Shown here: piece by piece, positions 936-64,000 of the stretch
Layout of the letters: every line of letters starts with the position of its first letter
Numbering within the stretch: the first letter of the stretch is position 1
Source of the DNA: a virus
Taxonomy: Duplodnaviria > Caudoviricetes
Length of the DNA stretch: 64,000 nucleotides
Strand: one strand, 5' to 3'
Virus record (IMG/VR): IMGVR_UViG_3300011008_000040
Location: 1-64,000 of that record
Notes under the pieces: generated by a model
Seen by the model: the letters and a program-made list of their open reading frames with translations, nothing else
Databases searched by the model: none
What the model was told of the DNA's origin: nothing
Translations under genes and position numbers: made by a program

Positions 936-1196
936 TTATGGGTCTGGCACTTCTTTTGTCACTTTGACAAAACCGCCAACAACGTCATGCTTTAAAATAT
1001 CATCAATTGCTCTTTCTACTTCTCTTGCATTCTCTTCATAAGAGAGGGCATCTGAAGTGAAAACTCTATCGCCAAGTGCACTAAGAACACGCCCTCCGGT
1101 CAACACTTCATAACTGTACCATTCATCGAAGTTATTGAAATAATCGTTCGGGTTGTCTTTAGTAGTTAAAGCGCAAATCTTCAATTCAAATATCAC
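936..1196 (-). CDS. Hypothetical protein, 86 aa, coupled to RNAP gene
   Basis: ORF start overlaps RNAP stop (GTGA); acidic. Confidence 0.75.
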   Translation of the reverse strand: MIFELKICALTTKDNPNDYFNNFDEWYSYEVLTGGRVLSALGDRVFTSDALSYEENAREVERAIDDILKHDVVGGFVKVTKEVPDP

Positions 1197-4100
1197 CTCT
1201 CTTTCAGCAAGAAGTCTGAAACCGTTCCTACTGATAATCCCAAAATATCAGCAATCTCGTTCTGGTTATATCCACTTTCAGCCAAAGACTTAATTCTCTG
1301 TTCCTTAAACGGAGTAACTGTAGTTTTATAATCCCTGGGCATAGCTCTATCTCTAAGAGCATCGGTATCGGTATTGTTCAAAATATCACGGAGCATCTGA
1401 GTATGAATTGCACCAGCTTGAATAGCTTCCCATTCTTTATCGGTTATTTCAATTCGCTCTTTCTTTGCTCCATAACGAATCCTCTGCTCGGCTAACGCCT
1501 GAGCTTTGATTTTCTTTTCTTCATCTGCCGACATATTTGGATTATCTTGCTTTTTGGCTTTATAGATAATTGACGCTGAAATCTGAGCTTGTCTTTCTCT
1601 TGGAGCATTCTGCTTTGCAATCGTCAATTTATCCTTTAAAGAATCGACTTCCTTTTGATAGGCAACTCTTGCTGTCTTGTCATAAGGAATTGGCCTAGTA
1701 GAAATGCTTTCTTTTCTGGCACTATTTGCAAGTGCTTTAAGCTGATTCGCATAATTAGCATATGCAAGTTCTTTCGGATTACGGGCGTCAGAAACAAGGG
1801 TCATTGCGTCTTCAGTGTCCGCCATTTTGGAAGTAACTGTCTGACGCTTAGTTTCCTTTTCAGAATATCCCACTGGTTTAGAAGATACTTTTCTCTTCTT
1901 GCCAGTAGTTTCATCTAAAATATAACGGCCGTTCTCATCTTTCTCATACTCGTAAATAGGCTTATGATAAGTTTCGCCTGTTTGCCTATACACTTTCTCG
2001 CCAGTATTAACATCAACTCCGTTCTTAACAAGCTGAATCTTCTTACCATTCTCATCAAGAACAAAGTTTCCATCTTTGTCTTTCAAATATAACGTATACT
2101 GAGGCTTAACCTTATCAATTCGTTTCTCAGAACTTGCCCTCGAGATTAATGTCGCTGCACCACGATCAGGACCACCTTGATAAATGGCTTTCAATTCACG
2201 AATCCCATTATCAATTTCACTTTGGCGCCAATCATAGTGATGCTTTTCAGCATCGATAACAATCATCGAATGTTTAACAGCTCTCGCTATTTCATCGTTA
2301 GGAGCTCCGAGCAATGTCATATCAGTAATAAGATTAGAAACCTTACCCATTTCGGTCTGCTTGTGAAATCCATGAGCAGCATCAACAATATAACGAGGAT
2401 CGTTCTTGTCAGTAATCTCATACTTGCTAATTCCGGATTCACTGAATTCCTTAAGCTCTCTCAAATATGGCTCTGCTTTAATCTTAGTTCCGACGCCGCC
2501 TTTTGAAACCGGAATCACCATTACTGTGTCTCCGTCGAAGTCTGCTCCGGAAAGCTGTTCTGCTACTTTTGGGTTAATTCCAATAGCATCAGTTGCTTGA
2601 CCAAGACGATCCTTAGCAACTTTATGGCTATTATTAACTCTAAGTTCAGGAATCTCAAAAGTACCTGCATGAGGATACCGAATCAGAACAACCGTATCTC
2701 CAGTATTGTAATTAGGAGCATAGACTTCTTTCTCGCCTAATTCAGGAACCGGTAATATAACGTGAGATGCCTGTCTCGGTAACGAAGTAGCTTTTAAGTG
2801 AACAGCAGATGCGTCACAATCTTCAGCAAAACTATCGAGGAAATACTGTTTAATTACAGGATTGTTCAGCTGCAAAATATCACGATATTCATCAAGTTTA
2901 TTTGCATAAGACAGGTCAAGCTGCTTCTTTACCAAAGGAAGATTCTGTTTAGAAAGGAACTGCGAACTAAGAGTTCTACTCCAATCGCCCCAGTCTCCTT
3001 CAGAGTTAACAATATTGATTGTTGATAAATGCTCTTTGCCATCCTCACCAATATAGAAACGCTGACCACCTTTTTCCTCTGGCTTAATAGCTGCTCCAAA
3101 CGGATTATCACGATCGATTTCTCCGGTAGTCTGGTTTGTCTTAAGTTTCTTAAAGACATCGCCAGCTTCAGTTCCAACATGCTTATTCGTGTTAAATATA
3201 ACGTCAACACCTTCTGGCATGTCATCTGAATACATAGCCATACCTTTAAGATAATACTTGCCATCAACCATAACTCGAACCTGAGCATAGTTAGACTTGC
3301 CAAGAGAAATATCATCAACACCTCGACGGAGTTCAATTACTCCATCTTTGTCCTTACCGCCTTCTTCAGCATACCGAATCTTGACTCTACTTGAATCAAG
3401 ACTTTGCGGATAATATAACCCATACTTTGTACGCTCAAATCCAGGATGTTTTTCTTCAGCAACCTGAGAATAGACATCATAAGGCTCAAGAGTCTGAATA
3501 TCGTTAAGATTGTTATACACATCTTTACGAGATGTTCCAGGAGGAGCAATCACTCTAAGCTGTGTATACTTACCAGGATTTGTAGCCTGCTCAACCATAA
3601 TCTTGTTGATTACAGAATATCCCTCATCTTCAAGCTGTTTAAGCGCAGCATTCAATCTTACATCTGAAACACCAAGTGTTAATTCAACACCAGTACCTAC
3701 ATCGATGATGCCTTTTGAGTCGACCTGATCTTTCAAATATAACGCCATATTAGCAACGGTAGGCTTGCCAGATTTGTATTCCTGAGGTTTCAAATAATTT
3801 CTTACCGTTCCCTCAGAAACACCCATAATTTCTGCTATCTTTGTCTTTGTATAACCTTTGCCATACAAATCCATGGCTCGTTCACGATTCTCAGCAGTAA
3901 TCTTCTCTTTAGCATTCGTAATCTTAGAACGAAATTCGCCAGTTGACATATTCATGGAATAAGCAATTTCATTATCGCTCATTCCTTCTTTACGCATCCG
4001 GTTAACTTCGCTCATAAAATACGACTGATGCTGATACGGATTATCGCCAGAACCCCAAGGGTATCTGCCAGAATGCCGAGGCGTTCCATAATGAATGAGA

Positions 4101-4243
4101 TGATTTTTGAAATCCTCATCTATATTCGCTTCACGCAGCAAATCTTCAAACTCATCAGTGGTGAGTTCCATTTCATATGCTGCATGCATAATGGCTTCGA
4201 GCTCTTCTTTTTCAAAACTAGAATATAACGTATCGTTGCTCAT
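1193..4243 (-). CDS. Single-subunit DNA-directed RNA polymerase (double-psi beta-barrel, YonO-like) with three HTH repeats
   Basis: Catalytic QLSGADFDGDTV motif, RYPHAG motif, three sigma4-like HTH segments, acidic leader ending LIHYGTPRHSGRYPWG. Confidence 0.85.
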   Translation of the reverse strand: MSNDTLYSSFEKEELEAIMHAAYEMELTTDEFEDLLREANIDEDFKNHLIHYGTPRHSGRYPWGSGDNPYQHQSYFMSEVNRMRKEGMSDNEIAYSMNMSTGEFRSKITNAKEKITAENRERAMDLYGKGYTKTKIAEIMGVSEGTVRNYLKPQEYKSGKPTVANMALYLKDQVDSKGIIDVGTGVELTLGVSDVRLNAALKQLEDEGYSVINKIMVEQATNPGKYTQLRVIAPPGTSRKDVYNNLNDIQTLEPYDVYSQVAEEKHPGFERTKYGLYYPQSLDSSRVKIRYAEEGGKDKDGVIELRRGVDDISLGKSNYAQVRVMVDGKYYLKGMAMYSDDMPEGVDVIFNTNKHVGTEAGDVFKKLKTNQTTGEIDRDNPFGAAIKPEEKGGQRFYIGEDGKEHLSTINIVNSEGDWGDWSRTLSSQFLSKQNLPLVKKQLDLSYANKLDEYRDILQLNNPVIKQYFLDSFAEDCDASAVHLKATSLPRQASHVILPVPELGEKEVYAPNYNTGDTVVLIRYPHAGTFEIPELRVNNSHKVAKDRLGQATDAIGINPKVAEQLSGADFDGDTVMVIPVSKGGVGTKIKAEPYLRELKEFSESGISKYEITDKNDPRYIVDAAHGFHKQTEMGKVSNLITDMTLLGAPNDEIARAVKHSMIVIDAEKHHYDWRQSEIDNGIRELKAIYQGGPDRGAATLISRASSEKRIDKVKPQYTLYLKDKDGNFVLDENGKKIQLVKNGVDVNTGEKVYRQTGETYHKPIYEYEKDENGRYILDETTGKKRKVSSKPVGYSEKETKRQTVTSKMADTEDAMTLVSDARNPKELAYANYANQLKALANSARKESISTRPIPYDKTARVAYQKEVDSLKDKLTIAKQNAPRERQAQISASIIYKAKKQDNPNMSADEEKKIKAQALAEQRIRYGAKKERIEITDKEWEAIQAGAIHTQMLRDILNNTDTDALRDRAMPRDYKTTVTPFKEQRIKSLAESGYNQNEIADILGLSVGTVSDFLLKER

Positions 4244-33041: not shown

Positions 33042-33070
33042 TTGATTTACTGTTGCAAGTATGCTATATT
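33042..33070 (+). promoter_or_regulatory. Host sigma70/sigmaA-type promoter
   Basis: TTGATT-N17-TATATT with TG extended -10, upstream of 33107. Confidence 0.55.
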
Positions 33071-33106
33071 GCATTCGTAAAACATAACAAAAGGAGATAT
33101 ACTATC

Positions 33107-33511
33107 ATGAATAATCAGCGTTCCGAACTTTCTCAATCTAATAAATACTGGATTCCTAAATACCGGTATCTTGAATTGAAGAACTTCTGCTTGCAATATC
33201 CTGATTGGGAAAAGCAAATAAAAGAGATCAGTTTTTTGAAAGCAAAAACTGAAATATCCACCTCGGGAAATTTTTCAAATCCAACAGAGAAACTCGCCAT
33301 CATCCTGGAAGCTTCTAAATCTAAAATGGATCTTATTGAGACCACTGCTTATTTGGCCGATCCGGTTCTTTCCAAATGGATACTAATAGCTGTCACAAAA
33401 GCTTATACTTATGAATATCTTAGGTACAAACTCGATATGCCTGCAGGAAGGTCAATGTACTATGACCGGTATCGCAAGTTCTTCTATCTTCTTGACCAGA
33501 ATAGAAACTAA
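33107..33511 (+). CDS. Putative transcriptional regulator (counter-oriented, lysogeny-type gene)
   Basis: RBS aaggag; C-terminal YEYLRYKLDMPAGRSMYYDRYRKFF helical DNA-binding-like segment; start reset to MNNQR. Confidence 0.65.
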   Translation: MNNQRSELSQSNKYWIPKYRYLELKNFCLQYPDWEKQIKEISFLKAKTEISTSGNFSNPTEKLAIILEASKSKMDLIETTAYLADPVLSKWILIAVTKAYTYEYLRYKLDMPAGRSMYYDRYRKFFYLLDQNRN

Positions 33512-33732
33512 TATAATTTCTTAATAAACACTTTAGATCCGGTCCTGCACCTCATGACAAAAAACTTGATCCGCAGCGTAATATACTCAATCCATGTTGC
33601 CCTGATTTTATAAAAAGCTAGCCCAGAATGCGTATAACAAATTATTGACTCGTATCTGGATCGTTCTTCATCAGAGAAACTGAAATTGTTCCACTCTATA
33701 TTCATTACTCCATATTCTTTTCTTTTAAACAC
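33508..33732 (-). CDS. Hypothetical protein
   Basis: GTG start after motif L1. Confidence 0.5.
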   Translation of the reverse strand: MFKRKEYGVMNIEWNNFSFSDEERSRYESIICYTHSGLAFYKIRATWIEYITLRIKFFVMRCRTGSKVFIKKLY

Positions 33733-33741
33733 TTTGAATCA

Positions 33742-33756
33742 CTCCCATTTTGAATT
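33742..33756 (-). promoter_or_regulatory. Late promoter-like motif L1 (AATTCAAAATGGGAG)
   Basis: One of 5 near-identical intergenic 15-mers. Confidence 0.55.
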
Positions 33757-33786
33757 AAACGAAAAAGAAAGGAGATTGTTAATCTC

Positions 33787-34050
33787 CTAAGAGTTAACAA
33801 CCTCCTCCGATACTGGAACCATCTCTCCTTTCTTCAATTCGTAATACTCGTCCATAACATCGGCATTGACCTCTGCCTCAACAGACGAAGCACATGTCCA
33901 AAGCAGAAAAATCGTATTCGCAAGTGTCAAGACTGTTGTTCCGATCTGAACAAACTTCTTAACTCCTTCGCTCGTAAAGAATTTCCTGATTTTTGACTCT
34001 TTTCTGCTTTCAACTGCATTAACATTGTCACCCATTATTATTTCCTCCAT
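33787..34050 (-). CDS. Small membrane protein under P5
   Basis: TM segment; bracketed by P5 and hairpin aggagattgttaatctcct. Confidence 0.65.
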   Translation of the reverse strand: MEEIIMGDNVNAVESRKESKIRKFFTSEGVKKFVQIGTTVLTLANTIFLLWTCASSVEAEVNADVMDEYYELKKGEMVPVSEEVVNS

Positions 34051-34085
34051 ATAAAATATTATTGATATTGTAGAGGTTCCTGTCC

Positions 34086-34113
34086 TCTCATATAGAGGAA
34101 TGTATTTTTTACG
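34086..34113 (-). promoter_or_regulatory. Phage promoter-like motif P5
   Basis: cgtaa aaaa taca ttcctctat atgaga. Confidence 0.7.
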
Positions 34114-34146
34114 AAAAAAGAAAGGCTCTGTTTTAGAGCCTAACTC

Positions 34147-34287
34147 TTATGAATAATCCCAGTCCATTGCTCCATAATCTTCAGTATCATCTTTGTCTTC
34201 TGTATAAGGCGCATACGTAATCGGTCCTTCACCTGTGTATACGTGCATGACCATCATCGTTCTTGTGTCTACTATTGTGCTAAACAT
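34147..34287 (-). CDS. Acidic 46-aa protein under P6 (not in ORF track)
   Basis: RBS ggaggt; manual translation MFSTIVDTRT...MDWDYS; hairpin aggctctgttttagagcct follows. Confidence 0.6.
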   Translation of the reverse strand: MFSTIVDTRTMMVMHVYTGEGPITYAPYTEDKDDTEDYGAMDWDYS

Positions 34288-34325
34288 TGTTCTGACCTCC
34301 GATTATTTAGTATTTGAGTTAATAT

Positions 34326-34353
34326 TCTCATTATGTAAACTGTATATTTTACG
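34326..34353 (-). promoter_or_regulatory. Phage promoter-like motif P6
   Basis: cgtaa aata taca gtttacata atgaga. Confidence 0.7.
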
Positions 34354-34421
34354 ACTTTAAATCACTAAAGAATCAAAGGCAAAAAGAAAGAGCCCTGCAT
34401 TTCTACAGAGCTCTTCTTCTT

Positions 34422-34631
34422 TTAGATCAGGTCAATCAATGATCCAATCGCATCACTCGAAATATCAAGTTCTGCATCAATTTTTAGCTTAACTCTTCCC
34501 TCCTGTTCTACAGCATAAAGCTCATTAATAGATATCTTACCATCAACGCCGATCTTCTTTGCTAAGAATTTCGCTATGAGTTTTTTCGCTAAAGCATTTA
34601 CTACCTTGTTCGATAATGCTAATTTTAACAT
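34422..34631 (-). CDS. Small conserved protein under P7
   Basis: RBS aaaggag; hairpin plus U-tract at 34385-34415. Confidence 0.7.
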   Translation of the reverse strand: MLKLALSNKVVNALAKKLIAKFLAKKIGVDGKISINELYAVEQEGRVKLKIDAELDISSDAIGSLIDLI

Positions 34632-34647
34632 ATTTTTATAACTCCTT

Positions 34648-34675
34648 TCTCATTAGAAGAGTTGTAAATATTACG
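34648..34675 (-). promoter_or_regulatory. Phage promoter-like motif P7
   Basis: cgtaa tatt taca actcttcta atgaga. Confidence 0.7.
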
Positions 34676-34683
34676 CAAAAAAT

Positions 34684-34750
34684 GTAAAAGCGTTGCAAGA
34701 ATCGAACTTGCATCTCTCTTTCGAGCGCATTACCTTTATGCTAAACACGT
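34684..34750 (-). ncRNA. tRNA-like RNA 1 with the anticodon arm replaced by a GAAA tetraloop
   Basis: ACGTGTT TA GCAT-AAAGGTA-ATGC G CTC-GAAA-GAG AGAT GCAAG-TTCGATT-CTTGC AACGCTT T. Confidence 0.75.
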
Positions 34751-34755
34751 ATATA

Positions 34756-34783
34756 TCTCATATAGAGAAATGTATTTTTTACG
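34756..34783 (-). promoter_or_regulatory. Phage promoter-like motif P8
   Basis: cgtaa aaaa taca tttctctat atgaga. Confidence 0.7.
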
Positions 34784-34861
34784 AAATGACATTTTTGTAG
34801 GTTTGTGCCAAGTGTATGAGTATGCTAAAATCTCTACACTTTAATCCAAGGAGAAAATATA

Positions 34862-36094
34862 ATGTTAATTACTTGTCCAGAATGCGAATTACAAGTTTCC
34901 GATAAAGCTATTTCATGCCCTCATTGCGGCTATCCAATAAAAGAAACTAAACAAATGAGAGCACCATCTGCCAAAAAGCGCATGAGGCTGCCAAATGGTT
35001 TTGGACAAATATCAGAAATTAAAGGTCGGAATTTAAGAAACAGATTCAGAGCAATGATTACCGAGGGTACTTCTGAATATGGACGACCAATACAAAAGTT
35101 ACTTCGACCACAAGCTTATTTTCCAACATATAAGGATGCATATGAGGCATTACTTGAACACCATAAGAATCCATACGATACAAGTAAAGAACTAACTTTA
35201 GAAGAAGTTTACGATAAATGGATAGATAAGCATTCAGAAGAAGTATCCACTCAAGAAACACTAAAACAATATAAAAGTGCATGGCTTTATTGCGGTTCTC
35301 TTAAACAAATGAAAATTCGAGACATAAGGGCCCACCACATAAAAGAATGTTTGAACAAAGGAACCAAAATATTAGAAGATGGTGAAATAGAAGCCACTCC
35401 ACGAAAGAAAAGCAGTATTAAGATCTTATTCAACTTACTTTTTGATTATGCACTTGAATACGAATACGTCGACAAAAATTATGCTCGCTCGTTTAAACTG
35501 CCTAAAAATATAAAAGAAGACATTGATGAATCTCTGGAGCATCATATGACGTTTACTCCAGAGGAACTTCAATGTCTATGGAATAATTCAGATTCAACAG
35601 AGGTTAAAGGAATTCTAATTCAATGCTATATGGGCTGGAGACCTCAAGAACTCTGCAATCTGGAAATATCAAATGTTAATCTTAATGAAAAGTCTATTAT
35701 AGGAGGCATGAAAACTGCCGATGGCCGAGATCGAGTTGTTCCAATTCATCCAAAAATAGAGCCACTTATTATAGAATGCTACGAACAAGCTGCAGCGGCC
35801 AATTCAAAATATCTATTTATAATACCGGACAAACGTACTGCCGGTAGAATGATCCATTTAACGTATAACAAATACTATAAAGATTTTCAAAATATCATGA
35901 AGTCGCTTGGCTTGCATGAAAACCACAAACCGCATGATGCCAGAAAGCAATTTATAACAGCAGCAAAAGAAGCTAATGTAAATGACTTCGCAATAAAACT
36001 AATGGTCGGACATAAAATAACAGACATAACCGAAGCCGTTTACACTGAACGAAAATTTGATTGGCTTTACGAAGAGATCTGTAAAATACCTTGA
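34862..36094 (+). CDS. int: Tyrosine integrase with N-terminal zinc ribbon
   Basis: CPEC/CPHC; GWRPQEL, PHDARK, LMVGHK, VYTE catalytic residues. Confidence 0.92.
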   Translation: MLITCPECELQVSDKAISCPHCGYPIKETKQMRAPSAKKRMRLPNGFGQISEIKGRNLRNRFRAMITEGTSEYGRPIQKLLRPQAYFPTYKDAYEALLEHHKNPYDTSKELTLEEVYDKWIDKHSEEVSTQETLKQYKSAWLYCGSLKQMKIRDIRAHHIKECLNKGTKILEDGEIEATPRKKSSIKILFNLLFDYALEYEYVDKNYARSFKLPKNIKEDIDESLEHHMTFTPEELQCLWNNSDSTEVKGILIQCYMGWRPQELCNLEISNVNLNEKSIIGGMKTADGRDRVVPIHPKIEPLIIECYEQAAAANSKYLFIIPDKRTAGRMIHLTYNKYYKDFQNIMKSLGLHENHKPHDARKQFITAAKEANVNDFAIKLMVGHKITDITEAVYTERKFDWLYEEICKIP

Positions 36095-36099
36095 AAAAA

Positions 36100-36270
36100 T
36101 AAATGCCATGTAAACAATAAAAAGAGGCAGTATAGGATTAGTGTAGGAATACTATCATTCTAACTAACCTATACTGCCTTTAACAGTTCTTCAAATTGCA
36201 GGAATACCTATAAAACTTAATACTTTTCTAGCATAAATTTGCTGGCAAGTGTATTTGTAAACACTTAACT
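36100..36270. other. Candidate attP region
   Basis: Non-coding, 3' of int; 12-bp inverted repeat 36125-36136/36168-36179; TG(T/C)AGGAATA at 36142 and 36197. Confidence 0.45.
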
Positions 36271-36347
36271 TGCAGCTTTGAGACGTTAAACGACATTAAA
36301 ATATACGATTAATGTATGAACTAACTTCTTTGGACTGCTTTTTAAAC

Positions 36348-36533
36348 TTAATTCGACTTCTTAATAAGTATCCTATCCTCGCCAAACACTATTGCATCGC
36401 TCTCTTCATTAACCAGATAAATTGGAGCACCAGGAAGGGCACGTTTAAATTCTATGAATTCAAGCAGAAGTCTCCTTCGTCGTTCACCATACGCATATGG
36501 CAACCGCTCAGTTTTATTATCTGTAATATTCAT
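36348..36533 (-). CDS. Hypothetical protein
   Basis: ORF with RBS ggagtg. Confidence 0.6.
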   Translation of the reverse strand: MNITDNKTERLPYAYGERRRRLLLEFIEFKRALPGAPIYLVNEESDAIVFGEDRILIKKSN

Positions 36534-36540
36534 TATGGCA

Positions 36541-36765
36541 TCACTCCATAATATTCAACATAATGGTATAATCTTGAGCTACTTCATCAAAGAAAAGCCA
36601 GTTACCGCTATCAGTTTCGATAAAATTACTTCCACCACAAACATTCTTAGTCGGCAGCTTACCCTGTTCTCTTGCTGCTTCGTCACAATAGCCTTCAATA
36701 AAAGTAATTACATTACCATCAGGGGTAATCTCAACTACTTTTTCAGATATAATGCGGACATACAT
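36541..36765 (-). CDS. Hypothetical protein
   Basis: ORF with RBS gaggt. Confidence 0.6.
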   Translation of the reverse strand: MYVRIISEKVVEITPDGNVITFIEGYCDEAAREQGKLPTKNVCGGSNFIETDSGNWLFFDEVAQDYTIMLNIME

Positions 36766-36782
36766 TGCTGCTTACCTCACTC

Positions 36783-37214
36783 TTAATATTTCTCCAGTGT
36801 CTCTATTGAACCTATTTCATTATTTAAATAACCATTACCTTCAAGATCTTCATGGTAAACCTGCCACATCCGTTTCAAAGACTTATACTCTTCCTCACGT
36901 ATACGTCCTTCAGATTCATACTTCTTACACAAGAATTTAATTCGATCATAAAGGATTTCCCTTAAACCAGCTTGGAGCGCAACTGTTCGTGTATTACTCC
37001 CCTGTGTTTCAGCATCCAATTCCTTAGAAAGCTTCTCGACCTTCTTACTAAGCTCAACGAGCTCATTTGCAATTTTATCAATTTTATCTTCCATTGTGTC
37101 TTTAGTCTCGTCAGCTTTATCCTGTTTCTCCCATTTGCGTTTCAAATATAAAGCGCCAATGGTGGCACAGGCAGTGACGAGTGCAGACCCAATAATTTTT
37201 AGTATTTCAATCAC
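36783..37214 (-). CDS. Membrane-anchored coiled-coil protein, lysis-module type
   Basis: N-terminal TM; GLREILYDRI...YHEDLEGNG C-terminus typical of genes next to holins. Confidence 0.65.
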   Translation of the reverse strand: MIEILKIIGSALVTACATIGALYLKRKWEKQDKADETKDTMEDKIDKIANELVELSKKVEKLSKELDAETQGSNTRTVALQAGLREILYDRIKFLCKKYESEGRIREEEYKSLKRMWQVYHEDLEGNGYLNNEIGSIETLEKY

Positions 37215-37363
37215 TTTACGACCTCCTGTTCTTGCTTATCTGCGTGTAAAGTAATTCGTTTTTCAGTTTGCGGATGAAGCTTTGGCCCATGCTCGCAACA
37301 CCAACACAGTTCTTTTCCCGGAGGAACTGAATCCCCGCATATCTTACATTTAGGAAGAACCAA
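37211..37363 (-). CDS. Zn-finger peptide, 50 aa, TTG start (not in ORF track)
   Basis: Manual translation MVLPKCKICGDSVPPGKELCWCCEHG...VVK; GTGA overlap with next gene. Confidence 0.5.
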   Translation of the reverse strand: MVLPKCKICGDSVPPGKELCWCCEHGPKLHPQTEKRITLHADKQEQEVVK

Positions 37364-37464
37364 AACCTTTATTTCCTTTTCTATCACTTGTACTTACCAA
37401 AAATGTTTAAAATATCCCTCTTTCACTAATTTAGGGAAAACCAACATACAGACGACGATGAAAT

Positions 37465-38499
37465 ATGCTAAATTCTCTTCAAGATATAAATCAGGAGAGA
37501 ATCATGTACGAACAGTTACGAAATGAACTTATGGCTAGGTTAGCTGCAACTTTTCCAACTGACGATATTCAAATGATGCTTTCTACTCTCGACAGAGTTA
37601 TGCTTGACTATGATGTTCAAAAGAAAGAAACAGCCATTCAAGTCTATGACGCTTCGATCTACAATTCAATGAAGCTTTACCTTCTTTGCAAGAAAGCTGC
37701 CGGATTAAAAGAAGAAAGCTTACTAAATCTTAAATACACATTAAAACGATTTGCCGATAGTATGGGAAAAGCGCTAACTGAAATATCAACTAACGACATA
37801 CGAGGGTATCTATTTTATTATCAACAAAGGAATAACACATCTCCTGCTACATTGGAGAAAATTAGAGAGCGCCTGAACACTTACTTTCAATGGTGCCAAG
37901 AAGAAGGACTAATCACAATTAATCCGGCTGCACGTGTATCTAAAATTAAAGTTCCGAGATCTGAACGAAGAGCATTAACTGCTGAAGAGCTTGAATACTG
38001 TAGAAATCAATGCAAAACTTTAAGGGAAAAGGCGCTATTTGAAGTCTTGTATTCTACTGGCGCTCGAGTAGCTGAAATATCAAACTGCAATTTAACTGAC
38101 ATCGACTGGTCGCATGGAAGCATACGTGTATTTGGAAAGAACTCTGAATACTATACCGTTTACTTAAATGCAAAAGCTAAGGTTTCTCTTAAACGATATC
38201 TAAAAACCAGGGACGACAATTGTCCTGCTCTATTTATTACTACAAGGAAACCTGCAAGGAGACTATCTACTCGTGGAATTCGCAATGAAATAGAAGCTAT
38301 AGGTAAACGAGCAGAAATAGATGTGGTAGTTTCTCCACATGTAATGCGTCATACAATGGCTACAATGGCTCTACAGCACGGATCGTCATTAGAAATAGTG
38401 CAGCATTTACTGAATCACAAATCTCCATCAACAACACAAATATATGCGGAAATGGATCGAACAGAGATTGCTGCAGCGCATAAAAGAGCTGTAATATAG
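37465..38499 (+). CDS. Second tyrosine recombinase (XerD-like with SAM-like domain)
   Basis: STGARVAE, PHVMRH, LLNHK, TQIY. Confidence 0.9.
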   Translation: MLNSLQDINQERIMYEQLRNELMARLAATFPTDDIQMMLSTLDRVMLDYDVQKKETAIQVYDASIYNSMKLYLLCKKAAGLKEESLLNLKYTLKRFADSMGKALTEISTNDIRGYLFYYQQRNNTSPATLEKIRERLNTYFQWCQEEGLITINPAARVSKIKVPRSERRALTAEELEYCRNQCKTLREKALFEVLYSTGARVAEISNCNLTDIDWSHGSIRVFGKNSEYYTVYLNAKAKVSLKRYLKTRDDNCPALFITTRKPARRLSTRGIRNEIEAIGKRAEIDVVVSPHVMRHTMATMALQHGSSLEIVQHLLNHKSPSTTQIYAEMDRTEIAAAHKRAVI

Positions 38500-56828: not shown

Positions 56829-59306
56829 TTAGGAGTGAGGCTCAAGAACAAGATTTGCAAGGCTATATACCTTGCTTACAGACACGCCGCCGACTGTTGC
56901 GGTGAGCTTAATCTTCTGAGTACGCTTGTTAACAACACGGCCAACAGCATACATATCGGAAGTCATATCGACCGGAGCAGCTTCAGAATCCCCACCGAGC
57001 ATCTGAACAGTAACAGTAGCTCCATCAGTCGCAGTAACATCAAAGGCAATGTAGTAACCAGACTGCAGAGCAGGATTACCGGAGTAACCAGTGTATCCTG
57101 TTACATAATGCAGAGTGCCAGTAATATAGTCGTCGTGGAAGATGACATTCTCCTGCAGAGCAGAAACGAGCTTGCCATAACGAGTGGTCGTGCCATCAGT
57201 AGGCTCAACATTCAGGAATGCACTATAAGTCAGTTCGAGAGCAATAGCACTCTTCGGACGGATCATAGCACCAGAGCAACGGGTCTCAATGAGATACTTC
57301 TGAGCATTGAAGTCAATGTCGAAGTCATCGAACATATTGACCTGACCACCCTTATCGGCGCCAACATTATAGTCATTCAGGTTAACAATGATGCCGGCCA
57401 GTTCAAAGGTCACGCCGTCTTTCTCACGCATGAGATCTTCCATCGGAGGAACAGCAACGATCTCTTTAACACGAAGAGCAGTTGCGAGTTTGTCGATGGA
57501 ATCATAGATCACACGACCAGTGGTGTCTTCCATCAGCAGGCAATCATTGAGCATATCCTCAGTCGTGAACAGAGTCGGGTTGCCAGAACCACGGTACTCT
57601 TTGCGAGCCTTAACAGCAGACTTAATGAAAGCCTTTGCCTTAGCATCGTCGGTTGTGCTGTTGGTAACAGCGATCGTCTTTTTGATCGTGAAGAGATTAT
57701 CATCAGTCCAAATCGGGCGAATGTTGGTTTCGCTGATCTTGTCATTGGAAGCAGCGCTACGGCCATCGCCAACAAGAATTGCACGTGCGATCTCTTCATC
57801 GAGCATCATGCGCATCTCGCTCTTCAGCCATGCGACAACATCGAAATCGGTAATATCGATCTGATCGTCGCGATCAATCTTCTGCTTCTTATAGATAGTC
57901 GTCGGGGTTGTTGTACGCTTCAGAATATTGAAGACTTCCTCAACTTTTGCATTGCCCTTAACATAGCCCTTTGCGCGAGCATCGGCCTCAGTCAGGTCAG
58001 CGTTCAGGCTCTTAATACGAGAGAACGGGGTCTTGTGAACACCATTCAGAACTTTGCCAACCCATTCATCAGGATCGCGATAGAATCCCGGAGTCTGGGT
58101 AACAGCTTTTGCTTCGGGGAACAGATAATCGATATCTTCAATGCCGTGAGCAAGAACAGCCTCTTTCAGGCTTCCGCAACGACGGGCATCGCTAAAGATT
58201 TCTGCCATTTCGGAATGAGAAAGAACGGTCACATCATTCTTCTCTTCAGTTTCAAATACGTTGTGCTTCATTTCTTCTCCTTCGGGCGCCTTGCCCTCAT
58301 CATTATTAGATTTCTTTGCTTTCTTGGCTTTGGCATCTTCAATGGCCTGACCAATCAAAGCATAAACAACATTTCTCTGTTTCTCAGACAGAGTATCAAG
58401 GACATCTTTGACGGTTTCACCATCTTCTTCGTCCTCATTTTCATTATCGGCATGCTCAATTTCGGAATGCTCTACTTCTTTGCCTTCATTTTCAACATCT
58501 TCAATTGCCTGACCAATAAGAGCATAGACTACTTTCTTCTGCTTCTCGGTCAAAGTATTGAAAACGTCAGCAACAGTTTCGCCGTCATCCACTTCGGCTT
58601 CGACTTCAACAATCTCGCCAGCTTTTACAGCATGCTCAACTACTTCTTCCTGCTTGGGCTGTTTCTTTGCGTTTGCAGTCTGCTTTTTAGGTGCAGGAGC
58701 AGGTTCCGGCTCAGCTTTAACTTCTTCAACCGGTTCCTGTTTCGGCTCTTCAACAGGCTGTGCTTCAGGCTCAGGCGCAGGTGCAGGTTCTGGAGCAGGA
58801 CCAGATACTGGTACTACCGGCTTTTCATCCGGATCGATAATCGTATGCTCAAGGCAAAGCTCATCTTCACCATGATAGATAATGCCAGAATCCTCAAGAA
58901 TCTCACCATGCTCCATAACAGCATCGATAAAAGCTCCCGGATTAGCACCGGCAAGGACAAGACTCACTTCACGAATCGTGCCATGAACAACATCATTGCC
59001 ATACTGCTTCAGCTTGTTTGCGTAGATAGACAGAGAAGTTACATCGCCATGCTGTACAATCTGTTTAGCATTTACGCCTGCCGGTGTACTATTGAACGAG
59101 CAGTAAGCGTAAACACCTTCATCCCGATTCTCAAGCAAAGCATGCCCAAGAACGTTCATAGGATCGTTGTGATCGTGATTCCAGACCAGCGGAACCGTCT
59201 GTCCGTCATTGTGCTTAAATGCATCTTTACGGATCGTACGTCCATCAGAGCACTTAAGATCATTTCTGGTTGCCCAGCCGCTAAAATCATAAGTAACTCT
59301 ACTCAT
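56829..59306 (-). CDS. Prohead protease - scaffold - major capsid fusion with C-terminal Ig-like domain
   Basis: HK97-type protease (VPLVWNH, EVSLVLAGANPGA), acidic Pro-rich linker with duplicated helix, capsid (LDEEIARAILVGDG, FDIDFNAQKYLIETR). Confidence 0.88.
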   Translation of the reverse strand: MSRVTYDFSGWATRNDLKCSDGRTIRKDAFKHNDGQTVPLVWNHDHNDPMNVLGHALLENRDEGVYAYCSFNSTPAGVNAKQIVQHGDVTSLSIYANKLKQYGNDVVHGTIREVSLVLAGANPGAFIDAVMEHGEILEDSGIIYHGEDELCLEHTIIDPDEKPVVPVSGPAPEPAPAPEPEAQPVEEPKQEPVEEVKAEPEPAPAPKKQTANAKKQPKQEEVVEHAVKAGEIVEVEAEVDDGETVADVFNTLTEKQKKVVYALIGQAIEDVENEGKEVEHSEIEHADNENEDEEDGETVKDVLDTLSEKQRNVVYALIGQAIEDAKAKKAKKSNNDEGKAPEGEEMKHNVFETEEKNDVTVLSHSEMAEIFSDARRCGSLKEAVLAHGIEDIDYLFPEAKAVTQTPGFYRDPDEWVGKVLNGVHKTPFSRIKSLNADLTEADARAKGYVKGNAKVEEVFNILKRTTTPTTIYKKQKIDRDDQIDITDFDVVAWLKSEMRMMLDEEIARAILVGDGRSAASNDKISETNIRPIWTDDNLFTIKKTIAVTNSTTDDAKAKAFIKSAVKARKEYRGSGNPTLFTTEDMLNDCLLMEDTTGRVIYDSIDKLATALRVKEIVAVPPMEDLMREKDGVTFELAGIIVNLNDYNVGADKGGQVNMFDDFDIDFNAQKYLIETRCSGAMIRPKSAIALELTYSAFLNVEPTDGTTTRYGKLVSALQENVIFHDDYITGTLHYVTGYTGYSGNPALQSGYYIAFDVTATDGATVTVQMLGGDSEAAPVDMTSDMYAVGRVVNKRTQKIKLTATVGGVSVSKVYSLANLVLEPHS

Positions 59307-59440: not shown

Positions 59441-60694
59441 TCACTGGTCTGGAAAGTTTATACTATCTTCATTATCAGAATCCTGACTCCTTGTAGTAGC
59501 GAACTCTTGCCCTTGCTGTGCATTAAGATTCTTATTCCTGAGTTCATCGGCCTTCGCGTCATCAACAGGCTTCATGCCGACAACCTGCCTAATTTCATTC
59601 GAAGACATGATCTCATTCCTTGTAAACTTATCAGCAATTTCAGCAAGTTGAGCCACCGGAACAAGTCTGAACGGATCTCTGAAGAAAACAATAGACTGCC
59701 CTCTTGTACGAGCAGTCTTAGTCAGAAACTTACGTTTCATTTCATCAACAATAGCCGCCATAATCGGCTCAATTGTTCGATTGTAATAGTTGAGCATTAC
59801 CTGCTCAGTTGCGGTTCCTTCTAGAATTTCTTTAGTAATACCAAGCTGGCTATAAAGCATATTAGTCAAATATTCAATCTGATTCATCAGATTGTTATCT
59901 ACAGACCTGTTAAGCTGAGTAATATGCTCAGTATTGTCTATATACGCAATTCCATACTTTGTATTAGCCAGCTGCATTTCAATGTTTTTACGACGTTCTT
60001 CTGCCTGCAATCTTCTAGCATCAGATTTAACAACATAAGGAAGCTGAATGATGAGATCCAATTTCCCGGACCCGCTCTGTTCGTCGATAGCGTCCAAAAG
60101 ATTCAGTTTCCTTATAAGTCTCTGAAGAGTTGAGTTAGGCTCATTCATAATTGCATACAAGGGGTTCTCAACAATTGAGACCATATTTTTCAGAAGAGTT
60201 ACTTCCTCAAAATTCCCTGTTCGCTCATTGTATAACCTTACTCTAACATGATTTGGATACCACTGAACAATCTTTCCAGCCTTCATTGTTCGAATCTCAT
60301 ATGCTTCTGACAACAATGGATTGAACGTCGTATCAACAGGTACAATAGCAACGCAACCTTCATCAAACATTGACATCACAATGTCCTGCATTAATGCTCG
60401 ACCTGTCTGATCGATATTTGCTTCGACATTAAGACAATTATTTAAGCCAGATTGTATTACCTCAACAAAACGACCATTCTCATCCAACTTAACATGTTGG
60501 ACAGTAATGGCCGCACAGTCTACTGAAATTCTATTGTAAATAGCAGTTACTATCGAACGCTCGTTTCCTCTTGTTAATCGGATTCGATCAGGTCGATATG
60601 AAGAAACCATTCCAAGATCTCGATACTCATAAGGAGGATCTCGATTCATAAATGCATTCCAGGCATTTTTCAGCCTGTCAGTTAAAACTGGCAT
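59441..60694 (-). CDS. Portal protein
   Basis: LNVEANIDQTGRA, GKLDLIIQLPY, YYNRTIEPI, IMSSNEIRQ; position before capsid. Confidence 0.88.
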   Translation of the reverse strand: MPVLTDRLKNAWNAFMNRDPPYEYRDLGMVSSYRPDRIRLTRGNERSIVTAIYNRISVDCAAITVQHVKLDENGRFVEVIQSGLNNCLNVEANIDQTGRALMQDIVMSMFDEGCVAIVPVDTTFNPLLSEAYEIRTMKAGKIVQWYPNHVRVRLYNERTGNFEEVTLLKNMVSIVENPLYAIMNEPNSTLQRLIRKLNLLDAIDEQSGSGKLDLIIQLPYVVKSDARRLQAEERRKNIEMQLANTKYGIAYIDNTEHITQLNRSVDNNLMNQIEYLTNMLYSQLGITKEILEGTATEQVMLNYYNRTIEPIMAAIVDEMKRKFLTKTARTRGQSIVFFRDPFRLVPVAQLAEIADKFTRNEIMSSNEIRQVVGMKPVDDAKADELRNKNLNAQQGQEFATTRSQDSDNEDSINFPDQ

Positions 60695-60714: not shown

Positions 60715-61185
60715 TTATTTATATCTGTTCGAATAATACTCCGCAAATTTCTCATAATTTAAACGATCAACGTCATTTGCCCATTCAACAGCAAACTGTT
60801 CTCCATTGATCATTTTCACCTTAAAAACAGGATCATCTGGGCTATATCTATAAATGTCTACGGAACCATCTTTATAATTTTTTGATGTATGTGCTTCCAC
60901 ATAAGCACGACCAGCATGAAGCAATTCTGCAGCTTCCTCATAATCACTTTCTTTTATCTTGGAATAGGCAGCCATTGATGCCATCTGAGCCATCTGAGCA
61001 CGACCTAATGCTGTTTTGTTAAAGTGCTTATCTAATTTATCGACCTGTTTTTTATTTTCACGAGCCTGCCTTTTCTCTTCTCTGACGCGCCCAGCAGCAG
61101 TCCGTGTGCCATCTTCATTCTGGAAACGTCTAACGCCCCAGCGCTGACCTTTAATACCATGATGCATCAATGTTTCTTCATTCAT
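60715..61185 (-). CDS. HHG-motif protein C
   Basis: MNEETLMHHGIKGQRWGVRRFQNEDGTRT..G; unique C-terminus. Confidence 0.8.
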   Translation of the reverse strand: MNEETLMHHGIKGQRWGVRRFQNEDGTRTAAGRVREEKRQARENKKQVDKLDKHFNKTALGRAQMAQMASMAAYSKIKESDYEEAAELLHAGRAYVEAHTSKNYKDGSVDIYRYSPDDPVFKVKMINGEQFAVEWANDVDRLNYEKFAEYYSNRYK

Positions 61186-61795
61186 CGTCGTCATCCTCAC
61201 TTTGTTTTCCAGAATTCATCTGGCCTATCTTTTTCTTCTTGTTAAATGCATTATACGCCTGTATAGAAGCATCGACAGTTTCTTTTCCGGCACTTGCCTC
61301 AAGCATCTTCTTAATTGCTATCGTCGCTGCACCTTCAACTACTTTCTCAACAACATTCTTTGACGCATTAGCAACACCATTAGCAACTCCTTCAGCTACT
61401 TTTCCAGGAGCCATCTTAACGCCTTTTTTAACGCCCTGCTGCGCCTCTTTAGCTATGCTCTGAACATAGTTATGACCTTTAACTGCAGTATTAGCAACGG
61501 ACTTCAATGTCTTTGACGACATCTTAGAAATCGCAGAATTAATAGCCTCAGAATTATTAGTATAAAGATACCCTGCAGCTGCAACGCTACCGGCAATCAA
61601 TGCTGCTTTCCCTACATTCTTAAGAACTGTTTTCTGAGAAGCAGTCAAACCTTTCTTGCTAGATCCAGAACTTTCACGATTCTCTTGTTCTCTAGCTTTC
61701 CCAGCAGCTGTACGAGTTCCATCCGCATTTTGAAAACGCCGAACGCCCCACTTCTGGCCCTTGATGCCATGATGCATCAATACTTCTTCATTCAT
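61178..61795 (-). CDS. HHG-motif protein B (with hydrophobic helix)
   Basis: MNEEVLMHHGIKGQKWGVRRFQNADGTRT..G; KAALIAGSVAAAGYLY. Confidence 0.8.
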   Translation of the reverse strand: MNEEVLMHHGIKGQKWGVRRFQNADGTRTAAGKAREQENRESSGSSKKGLTASQKTVLKNVGKAALIAGSVAAAGYLYTNNSEAINSAISKMSSKTLKSVANTAVKGHNYVQSIAKEAQQGVKKGVKMAPGKVAEGVANGVANASKNVVEKVVEGAATIAIKKMLEASAGKETVDASIQAYNAFNKKKKIGQMNSGKQSEDDDDE

Positions 61796-61806
61796 AACAT
61801 ACTCTC

Positions 61807-62241
61807 CTAACCAAGTCTTGATGCCACTCTTCTGAACTCATTGATCTTCGCTCTATTTTCTAAAGCATACTCATCAACTTCAAGCTCAGTTGCTGTAAAC
61901 GTGATCTTAGGATCAACAGTAGCATTGAGTCTCCACTCAAGCTCAGCAGCATTTTGCTTCATAGCATCAATAGCTGCAGAACTCTGAGGCGGATCGAAGA
62001 ACAGCTTAACTTTTAAGAAAATATAGGTTTTAATACCAGCAAGATCTGTTGCGCTTCCAACAAAGTCAGACCAAACTGCTGTCTTATCTGATATCGAAAA
62101 TGGAGTGGAAGGACCTACCCCAAGCTGATATAGGATCATGAAGACTGTGTTGATATGCATCAGAACATCAGCATCAAAGAATGTATAACTTTCATCGATT
62201 CCAAGAAGTTTCTTAATCGATGTCAAAATTGATTCTGACAT
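61807..62241 (-). CDS. Head-tail connector/adaptor
   Basis: SILTSIKKLLG, MHINTV, FLKVKLFFDPP, ELEWRL; start reset to MSESI. Confidence 0.7.
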   Translation of the reverse strand: MSESILTSIKKLLGIDESYTFFDADVLMHINTVFMILYQLGVGPSTPFSISDKTAVWSDFVGSATDLAGIKTYIFLKVKLFFDPPQSSAAIDAMKQNAAELEWRLNATVDPKITFTATELEVDEYALENRAKINEFRRVASRLG

Positions 62242-62305
62242 GTTGGAACCTCCATAAAACAAAAAGAGCCTGCCGTTAAGCAGACTCAAAAATACAAATA
62301 CTTAA

Positions 62306-62503
62306 TTATTCTGTTTTCCACAGAATTTCTTCGCAGATCTTTCCTCGTTCATTTGGTTCATAATTTTTATCTAAACCACGCAAAGTAAGTTCATCACCTA
62401 CGGCAAGCATGATATCGCAAATGTCATCATCGGAAAGATTGTCAAAATCAACTTTCAAGCCAATATCCTTTATCAACTCTTTTTGCTTTTCTGTGAAAAC
62501 CAT
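62306..62503 (-). CDS. Putative immunity protein, 65 aa, acidic
   Basis: RBS aaaggag; MVFTEKQKELIK...GLDKNYEPNERGKICEEIL directly after toxin-like gene. Confidence 0.6.
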   Translation of the reverse strand: MVFTEKQKELIKDIGLKVDFDNLSDDDICDIMLAVGDELTLRGLDKNYEPNERGKICEEILWKTE

Positions 62504-62519
62504 AGATGATTCTCCTTTC

Positions 62520-62939
62520 TTACTTTGATAGTTTTTCAGCAAGCTTAGAATGTGTTGGCCATACCGTTGTAATTACTCCATTATCTGGATTCACTGCAAC
62601 GGTTGCTTTCTTTCCTATATATTGCTGGCTTGGCTCTCCCTGATCATTATACCTAACAGGTTTTATCCTAAGTGGATTTCTAAGAGCATTTACAATACTG
62701 CCATACTCCACTTTTCTCTCAGGAAGTTTTGACTGCTTATACGCATGCTCTGAAAATCTGGTAACCTTCGTGCCATTCTTAGTAGTGATAGACCCGCCTT
62801 CAACTATCTCATAAAACCGTTTCTTGGTATAATGACCTAATTCTTCTGGCGTTCGTCTTACTCCCCATTTCTGACCTTTAATACCATGATGAACCAAAAC
62901 ATCTGAGTTGTCAACTACTTTTCTTTTAACTACTACCAT
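62520..62939 (-). CDS. HHG-motif protein A with putative BECR-fold ribonuclease toxin domain
   Basis: VLVHHGIKGQKWG; FSEHA...ALRNP...YIGKKATVAVNPDNGVITTVWPT; start reset to MVVVK. Confidence 0.65.
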   Translation of the reverse strand: MVVVKRKVVDNSDVLVHHGIKGQKWGVRRTPEELGHYTKKRFYEIVEGGSITTKNGTKVTRFSEHAYKQSKLPERKVEYGSIVNALRNPLRIKPVRYNDQGEPSQQYIGKKATVAVNPDNGVITTVWPTHSKLAEKLSK

Positions 62940-62947
62940 TTTGAATT
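62933..62947 (-). promoter_or_regulatory. Late promoter-like motif L5 (contains the ATG)
   Basis: aattcaaaATGgtag. Confidence 0.5.
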
Positions 62948-62958
62948 CCTCCGGCAAA

Positions 62959-64000
62959 TCAGTCAAACGAGTCCTTATTCAGCTTGTAAGCAACAAAGGC
63001 ATCCAGCAAAGCAGCAACATTATCAATCTTCTCGCTATGTCTCTTCTTGGATAGTTTGCGATTTCCGTTCGTATCCTGAATAGCAATAGCATTTCCCATC
63101 GCATATGTCATTAACTGCTCATCAAATACCAAAAGCCTGTCCTCTGCAAGCTTCTTCAGCTCACCAAGAGGAACAGACTCTGTCTTTGCTCCCTGTATTA
63201 CCTTTTCAATACCATAAGCACCATTCTCAGTTTCCCATCGTTCAACAAATGAACGGGCATTATACGGGTCAAACCCAAAACAACGAACGTCATACTGAGA
63301 CTGAGCAATAAATGCATCCAGATCATCGTATACTTCCATCAAATCCAAGATAGATCCTTCAAGAACTCGAAGACTCCCCTCTTTAATGAAGTCTTCATAC
63401 TTTGTTCTAGTCGCCAACTGAAGCCGGCTGAATGTCAAAGACGAAATGTAGCTTCTGGCTTTAACTCCAAATCGACCTTTACTAAGTGGAAACAAAAATG
63501 TGAATGCGCAAAAGTCATCGCCCTGAGATAAGTCGGCGCCCATAGCGCATGGCAAATTCCAAAAGTCGCATCTCGAATGAGGAAGCGTTTCTTCATAAGT
63601 AAAGAAGTACGTTGATCCTTCCATCGGGATGTTAAATCTCTTCGCTAAAATGTCATTTCGTGCAGCAGGAACCTTCTCGGCTCTTTGAACATCATTAAAG
63701 TAAGTCTCATAGCTAACGGTCTTTCCAAGATTTGGATTAGCTTTTAACCAAATCATAGGATCTGTTTTTCCTAGCTCTATCTCATCAAGGCTATCAAGCT
63801 TATAATACCAAATCGACACATGCGGATTCAGATACTCACCTTTCAAGATGTCCATAAGTTCCATCTTAATAGTGTCACCTATGCCATTTCGAACAGTTCC
63901 TTCTGAACTCGTAGCGACTATGATGTAGTCGTCAAGACCACCTTTAGCAGCACCTTGAGCAATGGCATCAATCGGACTTTCTCTGATCTCGCAAGACAAC
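62959..64000 (-). CDS. terL: Terminase large subunit, C-terminal part (truncated by window)
   Basis: IVATSSEG, KANPNLG, MGADLSQGDDF, GFDPYNA, KIDNVAALLDA. Confidence 0.92.
   Translation of the reverse strand, partial: LSCEIRESPIDAIAQGAAKGGLDDYIIVATSSEGTVRNGIGDTIKMELMDILKGEYLNPHVSIWYYKLDSLDEIELGKTDPMIWLKANPNLGKTVSYETYFNDVQRAEKVPAARNDILAKRFNIPMEGSTYFFTYEETLPHSRCDFWNLPCAMGADLSQGDDFCAFTFLFPLSKGRFGVKARSYISSLTFSRLQLATRTKYEDFIKEGSLRVLEGSILDLMEVYDDLDAFIAQSQYDVRCFGFDPYNARSFVERWETENGAYGIEKVIQGAKTESVPLGELKKLAEDRLLVFDEQLMTYAMGNAIAIQDTNGNRKLSKKRHSEKIDNVAALLDAFVAYKLNKDSFD

Follow-up and report, generated by a model that had tools for sequence, protein, structure and literature searches.

DUF7211, a modular peptide of very basic phage proteins encoded around the terminase and portal genes, is a candidate tag for virion loading

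Proteins bound for the head of phage T4 carry a short targeting peptide that the head protease removes. The internal proteins of T4 include defence-countering cargo and touch the packed DNA through lysines, and the T4 peptide can load foreign proteins (PMC3012670, in part). Delivery together with the phage DNA has been proposed for the MuF toxins that temperate phages of Firmicutes encode (Jamet et al. 2017, PMC5576092, in part), and packaged effectors, with BECR RNase domains as typical cargo, are predicted in the work on polyvalent proteins (Iyer et al. 2017, PMC5512222, in part). Here we describe a peptide of about 30 residues, Pfam family DUF7211 (PF23847), that is shared by three otherwise different genes between the large terminase gene (TerL) and the portal gene of a tailed gut phage. 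The window analysed is a stretch of 64,000 nucleotides, bases 1-64000 of the 72,737-base IMG/VR virus record IMGVR_UViG_3300011008_000040, which is rated complete. From sequence comparison across related phages, we consider it moderately likely that DUF7211 is a virion-loading tag.

The three minus-strand genes, encoding proteins A, B and C (Table 1), have L-x-HHGI(K/R)GQ(K/R)WGVRR in common, and B and C additionally share FQN-x-DGTRTAAG. Against the 25-position Pfam model, which has a cut-off of 27 bits, hmmscan gives 29.8 bits for A, 30.8 for B and 29.3 for C, and a genome search with the same model gives 33.0, 33.9 and 31.8 bits, respectively; none of 14 control genomes has a match above the cut-off. 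A degenerate DNA pattern of the tag finds four minus-strand sites, and the reversed control pattern finds none. A fourth tagged protein is encoded beyond the window and scores 24.5 bits with hmmscan and 27.1 bits in the genome search. Its copy of the tag is internal, at residue 91, showing that the tag is not always N-terminal. The sequence-only reading from which this work started had proposed a common N-terminal tag that is also alike in DNA, and both parts are confirmed, the DNA of the tag regions having 72% mean column identity. Across the 15 tag codons, pairs of copies show 3-9 synonymous versus 1-3 non-synonymous codon differences. Because synonymous differences outnumber replacements, it is the peptide that is conserved, which rules out a DNA or RNA element; the DNA similarity is real but a consequence of protein conservation. 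The name DUF7211 was not found in the searched literature, and Pfam assigns the family no function.

The tag is widespread. A profile built from the four tags matches 28,742 representative protein clusters at E <= 1e-3, of which 13,919 also pass E <= 1e-10; where the tag is matched in bacterial genomes, these are mostly bins of gut Clostridia. Viral contigs yielded at least 576 stretches, the best 80 of which were analysed as loci; they were chosen by likeness to this tag, so close kin are over-represented among them. An open reading frame (ORF) that fits the tag pattern is found in 79 of these 80 loci, and 60 of them have 2-7 such ORFs. One tag per ORF is the rule (188 ORFs, as against four with two tags and four with four), and in 175 of 193 ORFs no more than 30 residues separate the first tag from the longest possible start. 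Gene order was compared in 82 sources, namely the 80 loci, this genome and phage FP_oengus. The conserved order is K (a connector-like protein), one or more tagged genes, TerL, one or more tagged genes, the portal gene and a gene for a protease-capsid fusion; it takes the form K D T D P M in 23 of the 82 sources and K T D P M in 10, and K-like proteins occur in 69. Phage records with a relative of the capsid fusion number 244 (Arthrobacter 95, Gordonia 55, Streptomyces 54, Lactococcus 13, and others). All seven scanned phages with this fusion head type (the present one, FP_oengus, 1706, ReqiPepy6, Gravy, GantcherGoblin and Count) have tagged genes in the same slot. In the Rhodococcus phage ReqiPepy6 each of the seven genes that lie between TerL and portal has the tag, and in the Arthrobacter phage GantcherGoblin the tag is found on gp9, which is annotated as an acetyltransferase; Gravy is a Gordonia phage. 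The lineage takes in Lactococcus phage 1706, the Faecalibacterium phage FP_oengus and many actinophages, and combines the fusion head with an absence of MuF. This supercluster, with 1706 and FP_oengus, and its putative polymerase have been described in a preprint (10.1101/842583, in part).

The tag consensus runs over about 30 residues, (D/S)(Y/E)L-x-H-[HY]-G-[IV]-K-G-[QM]-K-W-G-V-R-R-[FY]-Q-N-x-D-G-[ST]-L-T-x-A-G-K-K-R. Conservation spans from the Leu at -2, present in 93% of internal copies, to about +28, and the upstream flank is variable. Tagged proteins reach 1872 residues; each of the 150 top-scoring proteins has 2-5 matched stretches, and about eight tags were counted by eye in the longest printed sequences. 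Repeated tags separate acetyltransferase, papain-like deamidase, ADP-ribosyltransferase and low-complexity modules, and proteins with four tags fill the TerL-portal slot that is occupied elsewhere by separate tagged genes. In ReqiPepy6 gp013 (L126:564-2159) and Gravy gp12 (L128:5567-7132) a 2H phosphoesterase of the 2'-5' RNA ligase superfamily stands before an internal tag, together with a Gly/Ser-rich stretch; these fusions may represent a packaged counter-defence enzyme. DUF7211 is a modular peptide, not just an N-terminal leader.

Tagged proteins are very basic, with a median isoelectric point (pI) of 9.9 and a pI above 9 in 129 of 134 representatives, and 27 of the 134 have a membrane-like segment. 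Domains recognised in the cargo (n=129) are Gln_amidase (5), Acetyltransf_3 (3), Acetyltransf_1 (3) and GNAT_acetyltran (2), with one instance each of CW_7, DUF6582, OEP and DUF6321. ADP-ribosyltransferase and 2H phosphoesterase domains also accompany the tag. Gln_amidase, GNAT, ADP-ribosyltransferase, CW_7, 2H phosphoesterase and the BECR-like A with its acidic partner match the packaged effectors predicted in PMC5512222 (in part). The survey of C-terminal domains across relatives bears out the earlier suggestion of swappable C-termini on one tag in the terminase-portal slot, and in this genome the cargo regions of A, B and C are mutually unrelated, as had also been suggested (BLASTP E >= 10 for all three pairs).

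The same features could belong to proteins that are mainly structural, that is, internal head proteins that coat or condense DNA, with the tag as an assembly or oligomerisation motif and with no effectors aimed at the host. The high median pI would suit that role, as would cargo that is mostly Lys/Ala/Glu-rich and assigned to no enzyme family (of the families listed, DUF7211 is the only one matched by 123 of 129 proteins) and a copy number of 0 to 7, as if dosage counted. However, cargo of toxin-like or enzymatic type is seen repeatedly, the neighbour of A looks like an immunity protein, and a single structural task would not call for cargo so varied. We hold a mainly structural role to be rather improbable.

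Protein A had been called nuclease-like. It matches DUF4258 (PF14076) with an E value of 0.02 and 15.7 bits, below the 25-bit cut-off, and when A is taken together with its relatives all six match weakly across the whole profile, the best at E 0.0068, again below the cut-off. The nuclease-like reading of A is weak. DUF4258 is listed among BECR-fold toxins of the RelE/ParE superfamily, without a described member (PMC11980606, in part). Relatives of the A cargo number only five in a set of 5.8 billion proteins, and all are tagged. The longest ORF of A (62520-62966) begins at a TTG; we place the probable start at the ATG at 62939 because the relatives of A start there. The only structure match for the A profile, 1vkz at E 0.14, is at chance level and was rejected.

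A small untagged ORF follows A. In 15 of 15 viral loci with an A-like gene, the next gene downstream encodes a homolog of this ORF (phmmer E 1.2e-16 to 8e-12). The homologs have a pI of about 4.1 and are placed between TerL and portal; the partner of A is without a Pfam match. A and its conserved acidic neighbour are laid out as toxins and their immunity or antitoxin genes are. The 65-residue protein is a candidate immunity or antitoxin protein of the toxin-like A, whose toxicity is predicted. For B, described earlier as a transmembrane and Ala-rich domain, the Ala-rich part stands and the transmembrane part does not: no firm membrane helix was found, the best 19-residue hydropathy being 1.17, under the threshold of 1.6. 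Protein C is present in the Protein Atlas from residue 6 on, and a search there with its cargo returned no usable look-alike.

Evidence on virion loading comes from Lactococcus phage 1706. In its GenBank record (EU081845), ORF6, ORF7 and ORF75 are labelled 'structural protein'; the terminase, portal and capsid/protease are labelled merely 'putative'. ORF6 is the homolog of K. ORF7, of 463 residues, lies between K and TerL and has two DUF7211 matches, of 27.6 and 24.8 bits. ORF75 is the homolog of an RNA polymerase encoded in the window (E 1.4e-173) and has the leader discussed below. Notes in ReqiPepy6 repeat 'similar to 1706_gp07, structural protein' and '1706_gp75, structural protein'. Garneau and co-workers reportedly identified, in 2008, 15 structural proteins of 1706 by sodium dodecyl sulfate-polyacrylamide gel electrophoresis and liquid chromatography-tandem mass spectrometry. 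The labels of the double-tagged ORF7 and of the polymerase ORF75 make virion loading, which had been put forward for the swappable effectors and the polymerase alike, plausible.

If the tag were unrelated to the virion, it might instead act within the infected cell by binding DNA, the terminase or a host factor, and late co-expression alone would account for where its genes lie. The tag is indeed basic (KGQKWGVRR), no partner of it is known, and a tagged gene often stands where the small terminase is expected, in the K-D-T order. The labels in the 1706 record point the other way, as does the diversity of the cargo, which exceeds what a packaging factor would call for. A separate small-terminase-like gene beside HNH, likely but unproven (phrog_4259; no Pfam match), would also speak against it. 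We regard a role away from the virion as very unlikely.

The polymerase of this phage is a YonO-like single-chain enzyme. The earlier call of an RNA polymerase holds, given a match to phrog_4291 with E 0 over residues 40-1013 and an ADFDGD loop. A leader resembling the tag lies near the N-terminus in 25 of 26 long polymerase relatives of the loci, the one miss being cut by the locus end, and in all 120 database relatives among the matches listed. It is often found 5-13 residues in, with a median start of 13. In a local hhalign comparison of leader and tag, L-x-H-[HY]-G is in register and WG follows after a 4-residue insert. On mixed evidence, a relationship between leader and tag appears likely but is unproven.

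Several points weigh against loading by the tag and against the kinship of the leader. The 1706 labels are record annotation and come from another phage than the present one. Moreover, 1706 ORF62 (L135:1053-1331) and ORF71 (L135:5659-6012) have the label 'structural protein' although both are untagged, which shows that it does not single out proteins with the tag. These two ORFs sit among replication genes. The hhalign similarity is weak (P 3.5e-4, probability 37%). The DUF7211 model reaches two other polymerases at sub-threshold E values of 0.0041 and 0.0064, which speaks weakly for the kinship, and on the polymerase of this phage it has no match at E <= 10, which speaks against it. The flanks of tag and leader do not covary within genomes (0.174 vs 0.146, no signal). 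The earlier idea that the leader is the same tag has weak support from the alignment, and the covariation test is negative. Enzyme domains can be recognised in only about 10% of tagged proteins, and among solved structures no match to the tag was found at E <= 10. As to published virion analyses, the Faecalibacterium phage papers contain no virion proteomics of Oengus, the Arthrobacter phage paper has no mention of the tag or of mass spectrometry, and PMC4155818 has nothing on 1706 virion proteins.

The sequence-only reading also held that the tag is trimmed by the prohead protease. In this lineage the protease is joined through a spacer to the major capsid protein, and the spacers have a motif of their own. 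Among the 305 spacer His of 53 distinct fusions, 286 are preceded at -2 by Leu, Met, Val or Ile (rarely Phe, Tyr or Cys), compared with 7-45% when residues of other types are taken. The residue after the spacer His is mostly Ala, Gly, Ser or Asn. The hydrophobic-x-His context applies to nine of nine spacer His in this phage and to 30 of 36 in six cultured phages, and the full site, [LIVM]-x-H-[GASN], to 114 of 127 spacer His. In TerL the full site covers 6 of 335 His, and in the portal 59 of 235. Because the sequences compared are related to one another, none of these counts, nor that for the cargo below, is independent. The recurrent L-x-H-small motif of the spacer is real and, as a sequence pattern, a fair candidate for the maturation site of the head protease. 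Behind the tag it is not enriched: 18 of 367 His in the cargo of tagged proteins have the site, which equals background. The sole protease-like site of the tag is the L-x-H at its start, and there it is His or Tyr, not a small residue, that follows. Trimming of the tag is unsupported, with the site at background level behind a tag that is often internal or repeated.

A wider role in processing has to be weighed against the same counts. The tag could be chiefly a processing module, its L-x-H cut by the head protease and its core serving for recognition, so that multi-module precursors are cut or N-terminal extensions removed, and loading would have another cause. The two to eight tags of long proteins do stand exactly at module borders, four-tag proteins stand in for the separate tagged genes of other phages in the TerL-portal slot, and enzyme domains can stand before the tag. 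The hydrophobic residue at -2 of the spacer His, both in the fusions as a whole and in the six cultured phages, also has its counterpart in the Leu of internal tags. But the sites differ where both are constrained, with small residues (A, G, S, N) after the His in the spacer versus His or Tyr in the tag. The residue before the His varies, proteases of this type have no known cleavage specificity, and some 30 conserved residues are not needed for a mere cut site. We find it unlikely that the tag is chiefly a processing module.

The resemblance of the two sites raises a further idea, which we offer as tentative and doubtful, namely that the tag is a pseudo-substrate. Its L-x-H-[HY]-G would mimic the L-x-H-[GASN] of the spacer and dock the cargo in the substrate groove of the protease domain that each capsid subunit bears, and the cargo would be freed when protease and spacer are degraded. 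If so, one 30-residue peptide could load many copies of any protein, be it a toxin, a counter-defence enzyme or a whole RNA polymerase that begins transcription on entry, and it would be a portable protein-packaging tag for Gram-positive phages in a very widespread lineage.

We propose that DUF7211 acts as a modular address peptide, about 30 residues long, of one siphophage lineage with a protease-capsid fusion head. The proposal builds on the spread of the tag, its fixed place beside terminase and portal in phages of this head type, the charge of the tagged proteins, the kinds of cargo, the 1706 labels, the leaders of the polymerases and selection at the level of the peptide. The tag itself would bring a changeable set of very basic accessory proteins into the assembling head, and these would exit with the DNA at infection. 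If this phage behaves like 1706, its cargo would comprise the toxin-like A, together with B, C and the fourth protein beyond the window, and the untagged acidic partner of A would remain behind. The YonO-like polymerase would probably be loaded too, via a variant tag. Loading by the tag would account for tens of thousands of phage genes, found in gut Clostridia and soil actinophages, that lack annotation. It would also show what these phages send in before their genes are expressed: RNases that resemble toxins and have immunity partners, acetyltransferases, deamidases, 2H phosphoesterases and perhaps a polymerase of their own. For harmless cultured phage-host pairs (Gordonia, Arthrobacter, Lactococcus) it would provide a short, testable handle for packaging proteins, and it would place a virion-borne polymerase strategy in a lineage with temperate siphophages.

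Table 1. Features of the tag locus and of the polymerase gene; positions are those of the window unless marked as genome positions
Feature	Position	Strand	Evidence or remark
Protein A: DUF7211 tag and basic, weakly DUF4258-like (BECR toxin family) cargo	62520..62939	-	pI 9.85
Tag core of A (LVHHGIKGQKWGVRR)	62853..62897	-	DUF7211 match
Small acidic partner of A, 65 residues from internal ATG, untagged	62306..62503	-	listed ORF starts 62542; pI 4.37
Protein B: tag and Ala/Lys-rich basic cargo, acidic end	61178..61795	-	phrog_32444 over nearly full length
Tag core of B (LMHHGIKGQKWGVRR)	61736..61780	-	DUF7211 match
Protein C: tag and uncharacterised cargo	60715..61185	-	probable ATG 61185; longest ORF from GTG 61200
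Tag core of C (LMHHGIKGQRWGVRR)	61126..61170	-	DUF7211 match
Fourth tagged protein, 244 residues	genome 65308-66042, beyond window		tag at residue 91, after DUF6582-like domain
YonO-like single-chain RNA polymerase, 1016 residues, ADFDGD loop, helix-turn-helix domains at both ends	1193..4243	-	phrog_4291; Pfam HTH
Polymerase leader LIHYGTPRHSGRYPWGSG	4049..4102	-	residues 48-65 of longest ORF; possible tag variant, 4-residue insert
Large terminase	62959..64000, leaves window, ends genome 64776	-	TerL_nuclease E 2.7e-34
K, Phage_connect_2 (PF24829) connector-like acidic virion protein	61807..62289	-	Pfam E 4.2e-37; phrog_4247 'virion structural protein'
Portal	59441..60694	-	Phage_portal E 4.5e-18; phrog_12 E 5.9e-46
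Prohead protease (S78)-spacer-major capsid protein fusion, 825 residues	56829..59306	-	Pfam and phrog matches
Spacer of fusion, residues 125-395	58122..58934	-	9 His, all hydrophobic-x-His

On the minus strand the order of genes in this phage is TerL, A, the small acidic ORF, K, B, C, portal and the protease-spacer-capsid fusion. No Phage_connect_1 adaptor was found among seven proteins 3' of the capsid gene, so K may be the adaptor; searched by sequence, solved structures gave no match to K or to the capsid fusion. In 1706, ReqiPepy6 and Gravy (L127:2139-3889; L126:220-2159; L128:5223-7132) K overlaps the start of the next tagged gene by 4 bases, which suggests coupled translation, and in this window K and B are spaced by 11 bases. 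In many relatives a basic gene with the conserved start ..YDP.KA.EYY.RTRELKGR.. lies between the portal gene and that of the capsid fusion (L137:5052-5936; ReqiPepy6 L126:11202-11852). This phage is without it, the gap between portal and fusion being 134 bases. Two near-identical helical repeats, ..TLTEKQKKVVYALIGQAIED.. and ..TLSEKQRNVVYALIGQAIED.., were seen by eye in the spacer of the fusion.

Farther from the tag locus, positions 32996-38499 of the window are the sole block of plus-strand ORFs in an otherwise minus-strand genome. The block includes a 410-residue ORF (34862-36094) and may be a lysogeny module. A 1362-residue primase-polymerase fusion at 14500-18588 (phrog_4210 E 0; DUF5906) is shared with 1706 ORF55. 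Beyond the window, a diversity-generating retroelement lies at genome positions 67929-71452 (L001 5929-9452). It consists of a reverse transcriptase (L001 5929-7119; RVT_1 E 1.3e-11), a 119-nt template repeat (L001 7344-7462) and a variable repeat (L001 7593-7711) at the 3' end of a 631-residue tail-like gene; 17 of 17 mismatches between the repeats fall at template adenines.

The present analysis adds the ORF75 label, the pair of A and its partner, and the negative tests for a site behind the tag and for flank covariation. The closest likeness in design is to the T4 capsid targeting sequence, a short peptide shared by diverse small basic or enzymatic in-head proteins (IPI-III, Alt; PMC3012670, in part). 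A short peptide at the N-terminus of diverse proteins is what we find here too, internal and repeated tags being the exceptions. A sequence relation to the T4 peptide is not expected. Unlike that of T4, the DUF7211 tag has the candidate cut site behind it at no more than background level; it is also longer, at about 30 residues, can be internal or repeated, and belongs to siphophages with a protease-capsid fusion head.

With MuF polymorphic toxins, which are common in the gut, the locus shares variable toxin-like C-termini in the packaging module near the portal (PMC5576092, in part). An immunity-like neighbour is a further likeness, for A only, with the partner found in 15 of 15 loci and the toxicity of A predicted. 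The carrier, however, is a 30-residue peptide here versus a domain of roughly 110 residues, and there are several tagged genes per phage. No MuF domain is present, with no match to Phage_Mu_F (PF04233) at E <= 1 across the 72.7-kb genome, whereas 5 of 14 control genomes have one above the cut-off; the tag is thus independent of MuF, as had been supposed.

Multi-tag relatives count as polyvalent proteins, stringing together GNAT, papain-like and other domains in one chain encoded in the head module (PMC5512222, in part), and the tag was not found named in the examined parts of that paper. Unlike them, A, B and C are single-module proteins; relatives such as P0001 (1745 residues, with several tags) do have two or more effector domains in one chain, GNAT and Gln_amidase being among those of P0001. 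With the virion RNA polymerases of N4-like and crAss-like phages the likeness is a particle-borne polymerase, suggested here by the label of 1706 ORF75; the difference is that the lineage includes temperate and lytic siphophages and that packaging of the polymerase is putative. YonO of SPbeta is not known to be a virion protein. The catalytic loop is of the DxDGD type, as in the crAss and YonO polymerases (10.1101/842583, in part). By its sequence, the DUF7211 tag system is a member of none of the T4 capsid targeting sequences, the MuF proteins and the polyvalent proteins.

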